Origin: a virus
Lineage: Duplodnaviria > Heunggongvirae > Uroviricota > Caudoviricetes
Direction: 5' to 3' (one strand)
Length of the DNA stretch: 51,123 bases
IMG/VR virus record: IMGVR_UViG_638341087_000015
Span: 1 to 51,123 of that record
Every line of letters begins with the position of its first letter. Positions within the stretch are counted from its first letter, which is position 1. A program made the position numbers and the translations under genes. Under the pieces are notes generated by a model. It had not been told where the DNA came from and made no database searches. It saw nothing but the letters and a program-made list of their open reading frames with translations. Shown here piece after piece: positions 9,093-19,015 of this stretch.

Positions 9093-9389
9093 ATGAAAAA
9101 AGAGAACTATTCATTCAAGCAAGCTTGTGCTGTTGTCGGTGGGCAATCAGCAATGGCTAGGCTTTTAGGTGTATCACCTCCAAGCGTAAATCAATGGATC
9201 AAAGGGGTACGTCAATTGCCTGCCGAGAGATGTCCAGCAATTGAACGTGCAACAAGAGGTGAGGTTCTGTGCGAAGAACTTCGTCCTGATATTGACTGGT
9301 CATATTTACGACGTTCGGCATGTTGTTCGCAGAATATGTCAGTGAAGCAACTAAATGACAGTAACAAATCCTCATTTGATCATACCTGA
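9093..9389 (+). CDS. ydaS: Cro-like HTH protein YdaS-like (98 aa)
   Basis: ATG with GGAG RBS; divergent from racR; 98 aa as in Rac ydaS. Confidence 0.7.
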   Translation: MKKENYSFKQACAVVGGQSAMARLLGVSPPSVNQWIKGVRQLPAERCPAIERATRGEVLCEELRPDIDWSYLRRSACCSQNMSVKQLNDSNKSSFDHT

Positions 9390-9846: not shown

Positions 9847-10704
9847 ATGCTGTTTGTGCTTATTCTAAGCAATCGGGCAGCATCATACGGGGCAATTATG
9901 GCCGCATTACCATACATGCAACTGTACATAGCTGATTACCTGGCTGACACCATGCATTTGTCAGCAGAGGAGCATGGTGCGTATTTGTTGCTGATGTTCA
10001 ATTACTGGCAAACAGGAAAGCCAATACCTAAAAACAGGCTGGCAAAAATTGCCCGTCTGACTAACGAGCGATGGGCTGATGTTGAACCGTCCTTGCGGGA
10101 GTTTTTTTGCGATAACGGCGAGGAATGGGTGCATCTTCGGATTGAGGAAGATCTGGCATCAGTCAGGGAAAAATTAACCAAAAAATCAGCCGCAGGAAAA
10201 GCATCGGTTCAGGCCAGAAGAAGCAGAAAGGAAGCAGATGTTCAAACAAAACAAGAGAGAAATTTAACAGGTGTTCAAACAGATGTTGAAGTGGTGTTTG
10301 AACATGATGTCAACACAAAGGCAACTAATAAAGATACAGATAAAGATCTAAAAACAGATCCCCCCCTAAATCCCCCCCGGGGGAATCGAGGTGTCAAAAA
10401 GTTTGACCCTCTGGATATTGCTTTGCCGAACTGGATTTCTGTCTCGCTCTGGCGTGAGTGGGTTGAATTTCGCCAGGCATTGCGTAAACCGATTCGAACG
10501 GAGCAGGGCGCTAACGGGGCGATACGGGAGCTGGAAAAATTCCGCCAGCAGGGTTTTTCACCTGAGCAGGTGATTCGACACAGCATCGCCAATGAATACC
10601 AGGGCTTGTTCGCGCCAAAAGGTGTTCGACCTGAGACGTTACTCCGACAGGTTAACACCGTCTCGTTACCGGATAGTGCGATCCCGCCAGGCTTCAGGGG
10701 GTAA
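9847..10704 (+). CDS. ydaU: Replication-associated protein YdaU-like (285 aa)
   Basis: Position upstream of the DnaC-like gene; 285 aa as in Rac ydaU. Confidence 0.65.
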   Translation: MLFVLILSNRAASYGAIMAALPYMQLYIADYLADTMHLSAEEHGAYLLLMFNYWQTGKPIPKNRLAKIARLTNERWADVEPSLREFFCDNGEEWVHLRIEEDLASVREKLTKKSAAGKASVQARRSRKEADVQTKQERNLTGVQTDVEVVFEHDVNTKATNKDTDKDLKTDPPLNPPRGNRGVKKFDPLDIALPNWISVSLWREWVEFRQALRKPIRTEQGANGAIRELEKFRQQGFSPEQVIRHSIANEYQGLFAPKGVRPETLLRQVNTVSLPDSAIPPGFRG

Positions 10705-10710
10705 CTGACC

Positions 10711-11457
10711 ATGAAAAATATTGCGGCAGGAGGCATTCTTGAACGTATCCGCAGACTGGCCCCGCCACATGTAACCGCCCCATTCAAAACGGTAGCGGAG
10801 TGGCGCGAGTGGCAACTTTCCGAAGGCCAGAAACGTTGTGAGGAGATCAACCGTCAGAATCGTCAGTTGCGGGTGGAAAAAATTCTGAATCGCTCTGGCA
10901 TCCAGCCATTGCACCGCAAATGCTCGTTTGCGAATTACCAGGTGCAGAACGACGGTCAGCGATACGCGTTGAACCAGGCGAAATCTATCGCTGATGAACT
11001 GATGACCGGGTGTACAAATTTTGCGTTCAGCGGAAAACCTGGTACCGGAAAAAACCATCTGGCGGCGGCTATCGGGAATCGCCTGCTGAAAGATGGCCAG
11101 ACAGTGATTGTGGTTACCGTGGCTGATGTCATGAGTGCTCTACACGCCAGCTATGACGACGGGCAATCAGGCGAAAAATTTTTGCGGGAACTGTGCCAAG
11201 TGGATCTGCTGGTTCTTGATGAAATTGGCATTCAGCGCGAGACAAAAAACGAGCAGGTGGTGCTGCACCAGATTGTTGATCGCCGGACAGCGTCGATGCG
11301 CAGCGTGGGGATGCTGACAAACCTGAACTATGAGGCCATGAAAACATTGCTCGGCGAGCGGATTATGGATCGCATGACCATGAACGGCGGGCGATGGGTG
11401 AATTTTAACTGGGAGAGCTGGCGTCCGAATGTCGTCCAGCCAGGAATTGCGAAGTGA
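10711..11457 (+). CDS. ydaV: DnaC/IstB-like replicative helicase loader (248 aa)
   Basis: Walker A motif [15 protein letters not shown] and Walker B LLVLDEIG; follows ydaU. Confidence 0.8.
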
Positions 11458-13346: not shown

Positions 13347-13443
13347 TTAAATTTAGCACTGTTAAAAATTTAATCCTTAACCGGAGGGATTTCTGCACCC
13401 TCAGAACATCAGGAGGCCGCCTGAAAGGGCGGTGGAGATAATA

Positions 13444-13965
13444 ATGGGAATAACTAAAGAACGATTGTTGGAAATAGCAAACCTTAGTGATTGGGCATTA
13501 AGTGATGAGAGAATTATTTCTCCTCATGCTTATGAGTCAGTTACAAGTATAGAAATAACCACAATGGCTAGAATGCTGCTTGGTTATTTCAAAATAGAAA
13601 ATAAAAAACAGATGGATAGTAATGTTGATATATGTGAGATTTTAGACGATTGGGGGGCTTGGGTTGTGGCTGGTAATAGTTCTATTGATTGGCAGGAAAT
13701 AGCTGATAAATATAAAAATGTTGTTCCTCATGGTAAAAAATCACGTCGTCAGTGCAGCAATGATGAAGGGCGAGTTATTGACATTAGTATCCTTAGGTTA
13801 GAAAGATATAAGCAACAAGAATATGAGTTAATTGTTGCTCATTTTGTGATTGGTTTATCTCTTCGTGCTATTGCAAAGCAACAAGGATGTTCAGATGGAA
13901 CAATTCGTAAAAGATTGCAAAAAGCCTTAGGTTTTTTGACTGGATATATAGCAATTACCAGTTAA
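13444..13965 (+). CDS. Putative Q-family (QuuD-like) antiterminator/regulator with C-terminal HTH
   Basis: Segments WGAW, SRRQCSNDEG and CSDGTIRKRLQKAL resemble the conserved core of DLP12-type Q proteins as I recall them; AT-rich; GGAG RBS before the ATG at 13444. Confidence 0.45.
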   Translation: MGITKERLLEIANLSDWALSDERIISPHAYESVTSIEITTMARMLLGYFKIENKKQMDSNVDICEILDDWGAWVVAGNSSIDWQEIADKYKNVVPHGKKSRRQCSNDEGRVIDISILRLERYKQQEYELIVAHFVIGLSLRAIAKQQGCSDGTIRKRLQKALGFLTGYIAITS

Positions 13966-14603
13966 GAGTCAGCGGGTTTTTTACCAGTGTAATGGTATAA
14001 GGATACTCCCATGTGTCTTACATGATATGGAAGCGCTGTTGCTGGATGCTTTGTGATACTCTTAAAGCGGAGGGGAGAGCCTTCCGCTTCAATTTCTGCG
14101 TCCGAAACGGTCGTAGAGAAAAATTCTTTCCATTCATTGAATTTTACTGCTGATTTGTCAGACTTTATATAAATTAGAATTCCTCCATGATCGTCACGTG
14201 ACGTACCCGTGCCGTAACGTTCGGTTAGCTGAATCCAGCCATTATGAATAGATTTGGGGCCTCTCCATAATTTTGCTTCACCGATCCATTCGAATTTTCC
14301 GAATTGATGTTTAACTAATAAATCAACGTGACCGCCATGTTGAGTATCATGTTCAACATCATAAAACCTACCTTTCAGGAAATTTTTGATCGACGCTGTT
14401 AGCTCGTCCTCTCCCCACTTAGCATCTTGATAGAAGTGTTTGTCATTTTCTAAATTCTGAATAGCGTCGTCTAAATCTTCATAGAGTTGCTTTACAAAAA
14501 TATTTTTGTCTGCAGCTAATTTTCTTTGAACCATTCCCCTAAATTCAGGATCCATTCTAATTAATGATTGAAGGTCTGCAGTACAGATGTTTACATCACT
14601 CAT
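13962..14603 (-). CDS. Hypothetical protein with PD-(D/E)xK-like nuclease motif (cassette gene 3)
   Basis: Motif HVDLLV...EWIGEAK (D then E-x-K); ATG at 14603 with GGAGAG RBS, overlapping the upstream gene stop by 8 nt; 3-prime end overlaps the convergent Q-family gene by 4 nt. Confidence 0.5.
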   Translation of the reverse strand: MSDVNICTADLQSLIRMDPEFRGMVQRKLAADKNIFVKQLYEDLDDAIQNLENDKHFYQDAKWGEDELTASIKNFLKGRFYDVEHDTQHGGHVDLLVKHQFGKFEWIGEAKLWRGPKSIHNGWIQLTERYGTGTSRDDHGGILIYIKSDKSAVKFNEWKEFFSTTVSDAEIEAEGSPLRFKSITKHPATALPYHVRHMGVSLYHYTGKKPADS

Positions 14604-15024
14604 GCAGACTCTCCAAAAGACTCGAAGGAGTAAAGTATGGATAAAGATACTGGCTAAAATTATCAACCAATTCGCCAGTTTCTGGATGGTAAAAACTTCC
14701 TGTGTCTAAAGCATAGGAAATAAGATCATCTTCAACTGGTATTGGTTCTTCCGTTAAATTATCAATGTATTGAAAATGCATATCCAATAGATGTGCTTTA
14801 TAGCTAGATAAATAATCAGTTGCTTTTATTAGCAGGATATAGTCATCTTTCGTATCAGTTAGATAGGTCAAACCATTGATAAGGGTTTTGTATGTAAAGT
14901 GATTGATATTTTTAGCATCTTTACTAACCAGAAAAAGAAAAAGATCACGACACACACTGCGAACAGGATCATTAAAATCCTGCTCTATTTGCGTGATAAT
15001 GTCGTGATATATACTCTTTTTCAT
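14596..15024 (-). CDS. Hypothetical acidic protein (cassette gene 2)
   Basis: 142-aa ORF; its ATG overlaps the stop of cassette gene 1 as ATGA (translational coupling). Confidence 0.55.
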   Translation of the reverse strand: MKKSIYHDIITQIEQDFNDPVRSVCRDLFLFLVSKDAKNINHFTYKTLINGLTYLTDTKDDYILLIKATDYLSSYKAHLLDMHFQYIDNLTEEPIPVEDDLISYALDTGSFYHPETGELVDNFSQYLYPYFTPSSLLESLHE

Positions 15025-16112
15025 TTATGGCCTGATGATCTCGCTCTTCTTTTCTCTTCACAGGACTTAACAGAATCCAATATTTTTTCAACAATAAATA
15101 TAATCGAATCAATGTTGTTACAGTTCTTCGCAATTGCTTCATGCAACCTAATTCTAGGATTATCAAGCATTGTCCTTTTCCCTGGTAATATTAACTCTAC
15201 TGATAAAATATGTGAAGAACTTTGTGGTAAATCCCAAATTTTTCCCAACTTAAACTTTGTCAATATTGGGCTTGCGGACTCTCCACTATGATGGTAAACA
15301 TCTTGACGCAAACACTTTTGACTTGGTTTGAGTTTTAAAGAACTTGTATTGCCATCTGAGGTGATAAAAGATACATGAGAAATTCTGCCATCTACTTTCT
15401 CGTAAAGATCTTGTATTGAACCAAATAATTCAAGAGGATTGTTTAAAATAACGCCAGCTTCTTTTTTTATAAAATTAGCCACAAGGTATTGTTGAGGCTG
15501 TGATTCACTTCTTGGAAGGATAGATAAATCAATCGTAAGAATTAATATTTTTTCTGCAGGCATTAGCATGATGGTATTAAAGCATTGCGTGACTTGGCGT
15601 GTTTTGCATTTTATTTCTCCACCATTAGCACGTAATTCCATACCCGCATCGCTAAGATGTGTTGGGTCAAGCTCTATCACTTCAGTGTAATACGCTTTGG
15701 ATAAAAAAACAGCAGTGTCAATTTGTTTATCACGAATGATATCTTGACGTAGTTCAGCAAAATGCAGCTCAGTATCAGCAACTAACAGCTCCTCTCTGGA
15801 TAAAGGAGTTGGGTATTTTTCTGAGAAGAGGCTATTGTCCTTTTTCTGATTTGTGAAAATTGTTTGTAATTTTGCTACGTCTTCATCGGTGATTCTATAA
15901 ATAGAAAGTAATCGATTCCCGCTAAAAATTAAACCTTTCCAGAAATCGTCGATTCTGTCTTTTAGGTCGGGATTATGCTGAACTACACTATTTACACGTT
16001 CAATAAAAAGGGGTAATCCTTGGGCCGTTACACCCAGTGATGAACCAAGAAGCTTACGGGTGTTGCGCCAGCCAAAGCGTGAATTGATGTTTTTTACTGT
16101 TTGCTCAAGCAT
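15021..16112 (-). CDS. Hypothetical protein, about 363 aa (cassette gene 1)
   Basis: Track ORF 15021..16118 begins at GTG; the ATG at 16112 has AAGGAAG 5 nt upstream; AT-rich; no motif recognised. Confidence 0.55.
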   Translation of the reverse strand: MLEQTVKNINSRFGWRNTRKLLGSSLGVTAQGLPLFIERVNSVVQHNPDLKDRIDDFWKGLIFSGNRLLSIYRITDEDVAKLQTIFTNQKKDNSLFSEKYPTPLSREELLVADTELHFAELRQDIIRDKQIDTAVFLSKAYYTEVIELDPTHLSDAGMELRANGGEIKCKTRQVTQCFNTIMLMPAEKILILTIDLSILPRSESQPQQYLVANFIKKEAGVILNNPLELFGSIQDLYEKVDGRISHVSFITSDGNTSSLKLKPSQKCLRQDVYHHSGESASPILTKFKLGKIWDLPQSSSHILSVELILPGKRTMLDNPRIRLHEAIAKNCNNIDSIIFIVEKILDSVKSCEEKRRARSSGHK

Positions 16113-16457
16113 TAACACTTCCTTAATTTTCCCTTAACAATTTAGGGTGCTAAACTTTTTTGCGCAGTTTACACAAAAAAATAGTGCGTACGCAAAAACT
16201 ATCTAACATGATGAGCTTTAACCGGGAAATTTGTATATGTTGTGAGCATAAAGTTGGCTGAGAAATTTAAAACGGGTAGAATGACTGCGGGTGCTTGAGG
16301 CTATCTGCCTCGGGCATGAACACCAAAGGCAGATAGAGAAAAGCCCCAGTTAACATTACGCGTCCTGCAAGACGCTTAACATTAATCTGAGGCCAATTTC
16401 ATGCTTTGCACATGTAGGTTAGCCTCTTACGTGCCGAAAGGCAAGGAGAAGCAGGCT

Positions 16458-16613
16458 ATGAAGCAGCAAAAGGCGATGTTAATCGCCCTGATCGTCATCT
16501 GTTTAACCGTCATAGTGACGGCACTGGTAACGAGGAAAGACCTCTGCGAGGTACGAATCCGAACCGGCCAGACGGAGGTCGCTGTCTTCACAGCTTACGA
16601 ACCTGAGGAGTAA
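16458..16613 (+). CDS. hok: Hok/Gef family type I toxin (51 aa)
   Basis: MKQQKAMLIALIVICLTVIVTALVTRKDLCEVRIRTGQTEVAVFTAYEPEE matches my recollection of HokD/RelF; AAGGAG RBS; GC-rich structured leader and trailer typical of hok mRNAs. Confidence 0.85.
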   Translation: MKQQKAMLIALIVICLTVIVTALVTRKDLCEVRIRTGQTEVAVFTAYEPEE

Positions 16614-17079
16614 GAGACCCGGCGGGGGAGAAATCCCTCGCCACCTCTGATGTGTCAGGCATCCTCAACGCACCCGCACTTAACCAGCTTTGGCGGGTAT
16701 ATTTTATCTGTGAATATTTTTATAAAAATAATGCCCACGCACAGCATAAAACAAAAAGTATTACAGATAAAAAAGGAACGTAATGTGCAGATTTGTTGTT
16801 TTCCATATTTACTCACCTTAATATGATTAACCCTGATAGGGTTGTTATCTCAGCGGTTTTCAAATGAGATATTATGGTGATCTGACAAATTTGCATAACA
16901 TTAAAATTTAATTTGTTTAACCGCTTTTAATAATAAGCGTTGTTTGTATCCCAGCAATCTGTTGTTTGGTTTTTATTCCATTAAGGAGGGGGCTTTACAC
17001 TGGAGCCAGTTTATTTATACTTCATACGTCAGCCTGAACAACTGGCATCTGCTGCGCTGCGCCATCGAGAGATTGAGAA

Positions 17080-17679
17080 ATGGCGCATATACAACTGGTC
17101 AAACAAACCTCTTCCGGATTACTTCTCCCGGCGACGCCGGAGAGTTGTGATTTTCTGCATCAAATCAAAATAGGCGAGTGGATACACGCAGACTTTAAGC
17201 GTGTGCGTAACTACGCATTCCACAAGCGTTTTTTCAAACTCCTGCAACTGGGATTCGATTACTGGACTCCGGTCGGTGGGGCGATCACGCCTCGCGAACG
17301 AGAACTGCTGTCTGGTTTCGTTGATTACCTGTGCGAATCAGTTGGTCGGGAACACACGCCAGCCCTGAGTGATGCCGCAGAGCAATATCTGAATACAGTT
17401 GCGACACGCAGAACCCGGGATACGGCATTGTTAAAGTCGTTTGAGGCTTTTCGCGAGTGGGTAACCATTCAGGCTGGATTTTACACCGAACATTTTTATC
17501 CGGACGGTAGCCATGGGCGTCGGGCGAAATCCATCGCTTTTGCGAATATGGACGAAACCGAGTTTCAGCAGGTTTATAAATCTGTTCTGAATGTGCTGTG
17601 GAACTGGATTCTGTTCCGTAAATTTTCCTCTCCGGAACAAGTCGAAAATGTGGCCGCGCAGCTGCTGGAGTTTGCGTAA
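17080..17679 (+). CDS. Nin-region protein (YbcN/DUF1367-like)
   Basis: Position immediately upstream of a YbcO-like gene and Q; in-frame stop two codons upstream of the ATG. Confidence 0.45.
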   Translation: MAHIQLVKQTSSGLLLPATPESCDFLHQIKIGEWIHADFKRVRNYAFHKRFFKLLQLGFDYWTPVGGAITPRERELLSGFVDYLCESVGREHTPALSDAAEQYLNTVATRRTRDTALLKSFEAFREWVTIQAGFYTEHFYPDGSHGRRAKSIAFANMDETEFQQVYKSVLNVLWNWILFRKFSSPEQVENVAAQLLEFA

Positions 17680-17969
17680 TGGTGGATTTACGTAAAGCGG
17701 CGCGGGGGCAGATGTGCACCGTCAGAATTCCTGGCTACTGCAATCACGATCCGGAAACGTCTGTGCTGGCGCATTACCGACTGGCGGGAACGTGCGGAAC
17801 AGCGACAAAACCACACGATATGCAGGCGGCGATTGCCTGTAGCTCATGCCACGATCTAATCGACGGGCGGGTAAAAACCATCGATTACACCAAAGAAGAA
17901 TTACGCCTGATGCATGCAGAAGGTGTTCTTCGCACACAAGAAATCTGGAGAAAGGAGGGATATTTATGA
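17679..17969 (+). CDS. Nin-region protein YbcO-like (96 aa, Cys-rich)
   Basis: 96 aa with CxxxxC/CSSCH motifs; start overlaps the previous stop (TAATG); stop overlaps the Q start (ATGA). Confidence 0.5.
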   Translation: MVDLRKAARGQMCTVRIPGYCNHDPETSVLAHYRLAGTCGTATKPHDMQAAIACSSCHDLIDGRVKTIDYTKEELRLMHAEGVLRTQEIWRKEGYL

Positions 17970-18508
17970 TTTACCCAACGAATACAGGAAAAAGCGGAGA
18001 ACACCTTCGTCTCACCACGCTGGAAAGTGTCTGGATTCAGGGAAAACTACGTATGTGGGGGCGCTGGTCGTATATTGGCGGCGGTAAGACGGGGAATATG
18101 TTCAACCAGTTGTTGGCCTCTAAAAAGCTGACAAAAACGGCAATTAACGAGGCGCTCCGGAGGATGAAAAAAGCAGGTCTGAACAAGTCTGAACTTGAGG
18201 CTTTTTTGCGGGATATGATTAACGGTAAGCAAAAGAGCTGGCTGGCGCATTGTACTGATGCAGAGGCGTTATGTATTGATCGGGTCATAAGTCAGGTGCT
18301 GGCAGAGCATCCAGGATTGATTAGCGTCCTTCGGCAACGGTATGAGGGGCGGGGGATGACCAAACGCAAAATGGCTGAATTGCTAAATGATGCACACCCA
18401 GAGTGGTGTTTTAGCACATGCGAAAAGCGAATTGCTAATTGGTTGGCCGTTGCTGAGTATGCGCTATACATTCCCATGCGAGAATCATTCTCTCAAAAAA
18501 CGGCTTGA
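17966..18508 (+). CDS. Putative late-gene antiterminator Q (180 aa)
   Basis: ATG at 17966 preceded by AAGGAGGG; last gene before the tRNAs and lysis cassette, the canonical Q position. Confidence 0.5.
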   Translation: MIYPTNTGKSGEHLRLTTLESVWIQGKLRMWGRWSYIGGGKTGNMFNQLLASKKLTKTAINEALRRMKKAGLNKSELEAFLRDMINGKQKSWLAHCTDAEALCIDRVISQVLAEHPGLISVLRQRYEGRGMTKRKMAELLNDAHPEWCFSTCEKRIANWLAVAEYALYIPMRESFSQKTA

Positions 18509-18861: not shown

Positions 18862-18937
<76 letters not shown>

Positions 18938-18940
18938 TAT

Positions 18941-19015
<75 letters not shown>

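Follow-up and report, generated by a model that had tools for sequence, protein, structure and literature searches.

Between the replication genes of the window (the whole stretch of 51,123 nucleotides analysed here) and its ninB/Orf-like gene lies a compact locus with a 51-codon toxin gene of the Hok family, a longer reading frame that contains it, and a candidate antisense RNA gene on the opposite strand. The replication genes are a DUF1376 gene and a DnaC/IstB-like gene (9847..11457); the ninB/Orf-like gene (DUF1367) is at 17080..17679. On the upstream side the prophage carries YdaS/Cro-like (the cro-like gene at 9093), YdaT-like, DUF1376, DnaC/IstB-like, DUF1627, DUF977 and Q-family genes; on the downstream side come ninB/Orf-like, YbcO and DUF1133 Q-type antiterminator (17846..18508) genes, two tRNAs, a P21-type holin and a lysozyme. 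The preliminary description had placed the locus in the nin region, a fair label for a position between replication genes and a group made up of ninB/Orf-like, YbcO, Q-type antiterminator and lysis genes. The hok gene is co-oriented with the early rightward operon (cro-like at 9093, the replication genes, ninB-like at 17080, Q at 17846). The flanks vary between prophages; the hok/sok block is constant. The locus is very probably a canonical hok/sok type I toxin-antitoxin module, intact and of the hokD/hokW lineage, carried by a lambda-like prophage. Its elements are these:

16254..16282, plus strand: hok/mok mRNA promoter, with -35 TTGGCT (16254-16259), a 17-nt spacer and -10 TAGAAT (16277-16282), from a consensus scan
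16289..16705, plus strand: predicted full-length hok mRNA of ~415 nt, its 5' end placed from the promoter and the Rfam model, its 3' end from a weak hairpin and a U-rich tract
16289..16300, plus strand: tac (translational activator) element, GGGUGCUUGAGG, at the mRNA 5' end, from the folds
16301..16337, plus strand: first leader hairpin, CUAUCUGCC...GGCAGAUAG, inside the tac stem in the open form, from the Rfam structure and the folds
16333..16409, minus strand: Sok antisense RNA of ~77 nt, 5' end 16409 and 3' end 16333, the ends transferred from the annotated K-12 sokC by pairwise alignment
16341..16347, plus strand: ucb or anti-Shine-Dalgarno (anti-SD) box, AAGCCCC, partner of the mok Shine-Dalgarno (SD) sequence in the closed form and of tac in the open form, from the folds
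16389-16392, plus strand: mok SD, GAGG, 8 nt 5' of the mok ATG and invariant in 30 loci
16389..16426, plus strand: Sok-target hairpin of the open form, GAGGC...GCCUC, which is the mok SD/dcb stem and carries the mok start codon, from the MFE fold of truncated RNA and the Rfam consensus structure
16401..16613, plus strand: mok reading frame, 70 codons, containing hok in the same frame, from the ORF listing and alignment to mokC
16416..16444, minus strand: Sok promoter, with -35 TTGCCT (16444-16439), a 17-nt spacer and -10 TAACCT (16421-16416), from identity with sokW of phage Sp5
16444-16449, plus strand: hok SD, AAGGAG, 8 nt 5' of the hok ATG
16458..16613, plus strand: hok toxin gene, 51 aa, MKQQKAMLIALIVICLTVIVTALVTRKDLCEVRIRTGQTEVAVFTAYEPEE, Pfam PF01848
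16621..16642, plus strand: 9-bp GC-rich stem-loop just 3' of the hok stop codon (helix 12 of the consensus structure), from the folds
16663..16675, plus strand: fbi (fold-back inhibition) element, CCUCAACGCACCC, complementary to tac apart from a single bulged C, from the folds and covariation
16684..16707, plus strand: degenerate terminator, a hairpin CCAGCUUUGGCGG(G) followed by UAUAUUUUAU, from comparison with relatives

The identity of the toxin is straightforward. The 51-codon ORF at 16458..16613, taken from the ORF listing of the stretch, matches the Pfam HOK_GEF family (PF01848) over profile positions 1-42 of 42 with E 1.2e-23 and 82.9 bits (cut-off 22), and falls in PHROG 251, 'MokW-like host killing', with E 6e-33. 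By these matches it is a peptide of the Hok/Gef type, whose members are ~50 aa long and have a hydrophobic helix near the N-terminus. The NCBIfam library gives no sub-family call: its Hok subfamily model scores 48.5 bits against this product, under the cut-off of 73, and its HokA model is below cut-off as well. The ribosome-binding site AAGGAG is the same in 28 of 30 distinct loci aligned (their sampling is described below). A strong ribosome-binding site ahead of a 51-aa Hok/Gef toxin was what the preliminary description had reported, together with a possible mok-like in-frame extension starting at 16401, and the comparisons bear out all of it. In the alignment the ATG at 16401 falls exactly on the annotated start of K-12 mokC, the frame that it opens is 70 codons long, and 29 of the 30 loci have kept an ATG here with GAGG ahead of it; GAGG is also the mok SD of plasmid R1 (PMC9841398). 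The frame opened by this ATG is less constant than the start itself: it is the hok frame in 21 of the 30 loci, a different frame that nevertheless stays open for 55-69 codons in six, and a short frame stopping 4 nt into hok in two. This is the pattern that translational coupling, rather than a function of the Mok protein, would predict. The overlapping mok frame with an SD of its own, a hallmark of the hok/sok family, is present in the window, and its coupling to hok is predicted.

The start predicted for the hok promoter, 7 nt past the -10 at ~16289, is also position 1 of the Rfam model RF01794, 'sok', which matches the plus strand at 16289..16463 over its entire length of 157 positions (E 5.6e-27; 115.8 bits, where the gathering score is 59) and is the sole above-threshold Rfam match in 15000-18000. 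Conservation among phage copies takes in the hok -10 and all sequence downstream of it but does not extend to the -35. The Rfam name invites misreading: RF01794, called 'sok antitoxin', is a model of the strand that reads in the hok sense, and it takes in the whole hok leader as far as the hok AUG. With that direction and that end point, what it describes is the leader of the hok mRNA, and its matches mark that leader rather than the strand or extent of Sok; the true Sok RNA is the complement of the central part of the model. Two other hits in the Rfam scan were set aside. The minus-strand 'sok' match at 16187..16347 (22.7 bits, E 0.03, under the gathering score of 59) arises where the first leader hairpin, nearly a palindrome, is read on the opposite strand, and a ceN48 snoRNA match (23.2 bits, gathering score 70) is due to chance.

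In plasmid R1 the full-length mRNA is made inert by pairing of tac with fbi, the anti-SD box then masking the mok SD; trimming of the 3' end allows tac to pair with the anti-SD box instead, which frees the mok SD and makes the Sok-target hairpin (PMC9841398). This 5'-3' closure, the key regulatory feature of the module, is absent from the preliminary description, which had noted GC-rich, hairpin-prone leader and trailer sequence and suggested that both be folded. The GC content of the locus is 0.49-0.57, against 0.30-0.40 for its AT-rich flanks, and the unconstrained fold of 16289-16698 has an MFE of -169.7 kcal/mol (z = -8.5), with none of 100 shuffles as stable. In that fold, in the MFE structure and the centroid alike, nt 1-12 (GGGUGCUUGAGG) pair with CCUCAACGCACCC at 16663-16675, and GCCCC (16343-16347) pairs with the mok GAGG: the closed form. 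RNA cut at 16655 folds to the open form, in which tac pairs with AAGCCCC, a stem that the Rfam consensus also has, and a GAGGC...GCCUC hairpin holds the mok start. Both alternative conformations of the R1 switch are thereby recovered as computed folds. The tac/fbi duplex of the window comprises 12 bp at -19.8 kcal/mol, and fbi ranks first among 360 windows of the mRNA as a partner for tac.

Comparison across species speaks to the same pairings. A scan for the locus, one genome per species, returned 53 loci, of which 30 distinct ones (the window included) have both mRNA ends; they come from Escherichia, Kluyvera, Photorhabdus, Pantoea, Citrobacter and relatives. Some relatives are without tac or fbi (L005, L015 and L047). 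Pairing in the 30-locus consensus structure takes in 97.7% of cells and drops to 40-45% if the partners are slid by 1-3 columns; compensatory changes on both sides occur in 16 pairs, against 2-8 when slid, and none of 500 shuffles reaches the observed pairing or covariation. The structure keeps tac/fbi, the anti-SD/SD helix, helices in the coding region and the 3' hairpin. The first leader hairpin (consensus helix 2) is 99.6% paired, with two covarying pairs; the anti-SD/mok SD helix (helix 3) has three, AU exchanging with GC in 10 sequences; helix 12, the stem-loop at 16621..16642, is 97% paired, with compensatory changes. Judged sequence by sequence with RNAduplex, the 12-bp tac/fbi duplex forms in all 30 loci. 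Its pair 4:404 is UA in 21, CG in eight and UG in one, and where tac has changed (G12 to A in Kluyvera and Photorhabdus, G11 to A in Citrobacter) fbi has the matching C to U. The distal half of this duplex was assessed by RNAduplex and not by column counts because MAFFT had put the Photorhabdus fbi, which lacks the bulged C, one column off-register. Cognate tac/fbi partners are more stable than non-cognate ones by a modest gap (-20.5 against -18.3 kcal/mol), since many loci share the same tac. Covariation supports the closed-form pairings. The tac/fbi closure and the anti-SD/mok SD helix are found both in the full-length fold and in the consensus of the 30 loci; the open-form pairings are those of the truncated-RNA fold and the Rfam consensus structure.

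The stem-loop at 16621..16642 is likely, by analogy with R1 (PMC9841398), to be the 3' protective hairpin of a processed, active mRNA. Beyond fbi, K-12, Shigella and other E. coli copies have CCCGCUUCGGCGGG and a U-run; in the window copy the U-run is interrupted and substitutions have weakened the hairpin, to -5.2 kcal/mol from the -11.4 of CCCGCUUCGGCGGG in relatives. A simple terminator scan of 16100-16900 reported no terminator, and it is direct comparison that reveals the weakened hairpin, which could alter 3'-end formation of the hok mRNA and is the only deviation from the canonical module. The 380 bp that follow, from the hok locus to the ninB-like gene (16700..17079), are an AT-rich spacer (GC ~0.30-0.40) in which consensus scans pick up nothing beyond promoter-like and weak terminator-like matches, and Rfam gives no match.

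For the antisense strand, the preliminary description had expected a sok-like RNA around 16330..16460 and proposed a search for a minus-strand promoter; that search succeeds, at hexamers 16444-16439 and 16421-16416. The K-12 sokC maps to 16409->16333, within the expected range, the rest of which would be promoter. The promoter stretch aligns base for base with the sokW promoter of phage Sp5, in which alteration of the -10 with primer YO-421 abolished protection by the antitoxin (PMC8621323); the target of YO-421 is exactly the -10 matched by TAACCT in the window. A simple consensus promoter scan missed this promoter, whose TAACCT matches the -10 consensus at only three of six positions and is weak by that measure, and we accept it all the same on account of its identity with the experimentally mutated one. 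Hexamers resembling TTG..(17-18 nt)..TAAYCT are conserved at this position in the 30 loci. The predicted RNA folds into a short 5' tail, a long hairpin and then a UUUUCUCU U-run (-32.1 kcal/mol, z = -5.5), and covers the mok SD and start codon (16389-16403). In Sp5, sokW RNA has been seen on a Northern blot (PMC8621323); the probe used for it, YO-592, corresponds to 16380-16409 of the window. On the evidence of its sequence the locus would thus encode a cis-antisense RNA with a promoter and terminator of its own, as hok/sok modules do. Substitutions among 10 close copies of the module cluster in patches at 16394..16408, 16309-16328 and 16590-16650. The first of these takes in the mok start and target loop as well as the 5' end of Sok, and might serve to diversify the specificity of Sok for its target among the several copies (up to 10 places) that one genome can hold.

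The module is already known: it is the ordinary hokD/hokW-type hok/sok of lambda-like prophages in most E. coli genomes, and it has been characterised in a close relative. The block 16276..16698 is present in 4728 of 5426 complete E. coli genomes, in up to 10 places per genome, and is annotated hokD by the NCBI pipeline; it occurs at 541 places on plasmids and in 102 phage records (Stx phages, mEp460 and Rac-type among them), where it is annotated MokW, Hok or 'host killer'. Chance resemblance is excluded by the Rfam match (E 5.6e-27) together with conservation of the module in thousands of genomes. The nearest characterised locus is hokW-sokW of the Stx2 prophage Sp5 (VT2-Sakai) of E. coli O157:H7 Sakai (Takada et al. 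2021, PMC8621323). Both are in lambdoid prophages, and they are collinear from the hok -10 to fbi with ~94% DNA identity; Mok is 93% identical to MokW, and Hok agrees with HokW at 47 of 51 residues, the four substitutions being C-terminal (TAYEPEE in the window, VDYESEK in HokW). They differ at 16394-16408 (the mok start and Sok 5' end), in the sequence after fbi and in both sets of flanking genes. Plasmid R1 hok/sok (parB) is distant in sequence (HokW and R1 Hok are 44% identical; PMC8621323) and differs in context, its demonstrated role being plasmid maintenance whereas the window copy sits in a prophage. What the two share is regulatory logic: tac/fbi closure, masking of the mok SD by the anti-SD box, the tac stem and the Sok-target hairpin are reproduced in the window by folding, and processing of the 3' end and coupling of hok to mok are predicted for it. 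No feature of the sequence contradicts the hok/sok model.

By homology with R1 and Sp5, the module would work as follows. The constitutive promoter at 16254-16282 would give a stable mRNA of ~415 nt with the 5' tac clamped to fbi and the mok ribosome site hidden by the anti-SD AAGCCCC, a closed form neither translated nor bound by Sok. Slow exonucleolytic trimming from the 3' end, as far as the GC-rich hairpin at 16621-16642, would take off fbi; tac would then re-pair with the anti-SD box, setting free the mok SD and start codon and allowing the Sok-target hairpin to form. The short-lived Sok RNA would pair across the mok initiation region, blocking translation of mok and hence of the coupled hok, and the duplex of Sok and mRNA would be cut by RNase III. 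Once the supply of Sok ended, the pool of processed mRNA would be translated, and the 51-aa Hok would enter the inner membrane and collapse the membrane potential, killing or lysing the cell. In Sp5, HokW is toxic and is neutralised by sokW expressed from its own promoter, with only partial dependence on RNase III and Hfq (PMC8621323).

The trigger in a prophage would most likely be induction, with Sok disappearing and Hok acting before holin and endolysin so that lysis and phage release come earlier, as in Sp5. There, RecA-dependent induction makes sokW RNA vanish and places HokW in the inner membrane ~1 h before endolysin, and deletion of the locus halves phage release, a modest effect of ~2-fold (PMC8621323). 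A role of the Sp5 kind in lysis and release is the most likely one for the window locus, judged by its likeness to Sp5. How induction might silence Sok is suggested by gene order. Early rightward transcription, antiterminated and reading through after induction, would meet the Sok promoter (16416-16444, minus strand) head-on and would at the same time add Sok-target RNA, so that Sok would be both shut off and titrated and Hok released as an early lysis timer; the module would then sense induction through its own orientation. A strong plus-strand terminator is absent between 13965 and 16289, and this, with the gene order, is all that the proposal draws on; we consider it improbable as it stands. 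If true, it would explain the rapid RecA-dependent loss of sokW RNA in Sp5.

The same mechanism might have been selected chiefly for something else. Addiction to the prophage, that is, stabilisation through post-segregational killing when it is lost or excised, as for plasmid R1, would accord with the 541 plasmid places, with plasmid maintenance as the R1 paradigm (PMC9841398) and with retention of the module in many cryptic prophages (hokD in 4728 of 5426 genomes). A single-copy chromosomal prophage is rarely lost, however, and in Sp5 deletion of the locus has no growth phenotype without induction, while HokW is made upon induction (PMC8621323); as the main role in the window, addiction instead of help with lysis seems rather unlikely. 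Defence by abortive infection we hold to be somewhat less likely again. A lytic phage that stops host transcription would also stop the synthesis of Sok, and Hok would kill the cell before the invader matured; R1 hok/sok on a high-copy plasmid is cited in the Sp5 study (PMC8621323) as having cut T4 plating by 42% and plaque size by ~85%, and the locus abuts a slot of variable cargo that holds different genes in other prophages. Against this, the effect on T4, as reported there, is weak and needs high copy number, and the PADLOC library has no model that matches Hok.

Help with lysis, as in Sp5, stays the preferred role. Most chromosomal hok loci of K-12 are decaying remnants. The Hok ORF of K-12 hokD (relF, in the cryptic prophage Qin) is identical in DNA to that of the window, and identity is 98.8% over 16444-16698, including the 3' UTR with fbi; homology begins only at 16445, in the hok SD, and the leader, tac, anti-SD box, mok start and Sok gene with its promoter are replaced by relBE. 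The window does not have this relBE-hokD arrangement, with relBE upstream and no mok/sok leader, but keeps the full leader; to go by the alignment, it is the complete form and K-12 hokD a copy truncated upstream of 16445. K-12 hokC (gef)/mokC/sokC has the same architecture and register as the window, with 78% identity overall and Mok 74% identical to MokC: the mokC ATG corresponds to 16401, the hokC ATG to 16458 and its stop to 16613, and sokC to 16409->16333. The window differs from it by an 18-nt insertion in the Sok hairpin region and in not being cut by IS186, which interrupts hokC before fbi. That the window copy is likewise a conserved but decaying remnant, its expression or toxicity lost, as these two K-12 loci, the relatives without tac or fbi and its own weakened terminator hairpin might suggest, is very unlikely given that every element is intact (the two promoters, tac, the anti-SD box, the SD and ATG of mok, open frames for mok and hok, fbi and the 3' hairpin), the hok coding DNA matching that of K-12 hokD and the Sok promoter that of the active Sp5 locus.

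The significance of the locus beyond correct annotation is slight. Automatic pipelines usually annotate 'hokD' alone, leaving mok, Sok and regulatory RNA elements unmarked, where the window holds the whole hok/mok/sok module; its copy offers a clean reference for what K-12 hokD was ancestrally, before truncation, and it could serve to ask how prophage induction turns off Sok, a question raised by the Sp5 study.

Some features of the neighbourhood deserve mention. A cassette of three leftward genes (13962..16118, minus strand; 234, 142 and 365 aa; GC 0.32-0.40) abuts the hok promoter. None of the three has a match in Pfam, NCBIfam, PADLOC or a PDB sequence search, and only PHROGs of unknown function (9664, 11490 and 12777) are hit. 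The same cassette adjoins hokD in a prophage of EPEC E2348/69, and in E. coli 2013C-3264 the slot beside hok holds 'sce7726 family' and 'beta family' genes instead; it looks like a place for variable cargo beside the constant hok/sok block, possibly of defence genes. The prophage also has two Q-type antiterminator genes. One, at 13432..13965, upstream of the cassette, is of the Phage_antitermQ family with a sigma-70 region-4-like C-terminus; the other, the DUF1133/Q gene at 17846..18508, stands directly before the lysis region. Between the latter gene and the holin lie tRNA-Thr (TGT) and tRNA-Gly (TCC) at 18862..19015, a position in which Stx-type and related lambdoid phages often carry tRNAs.
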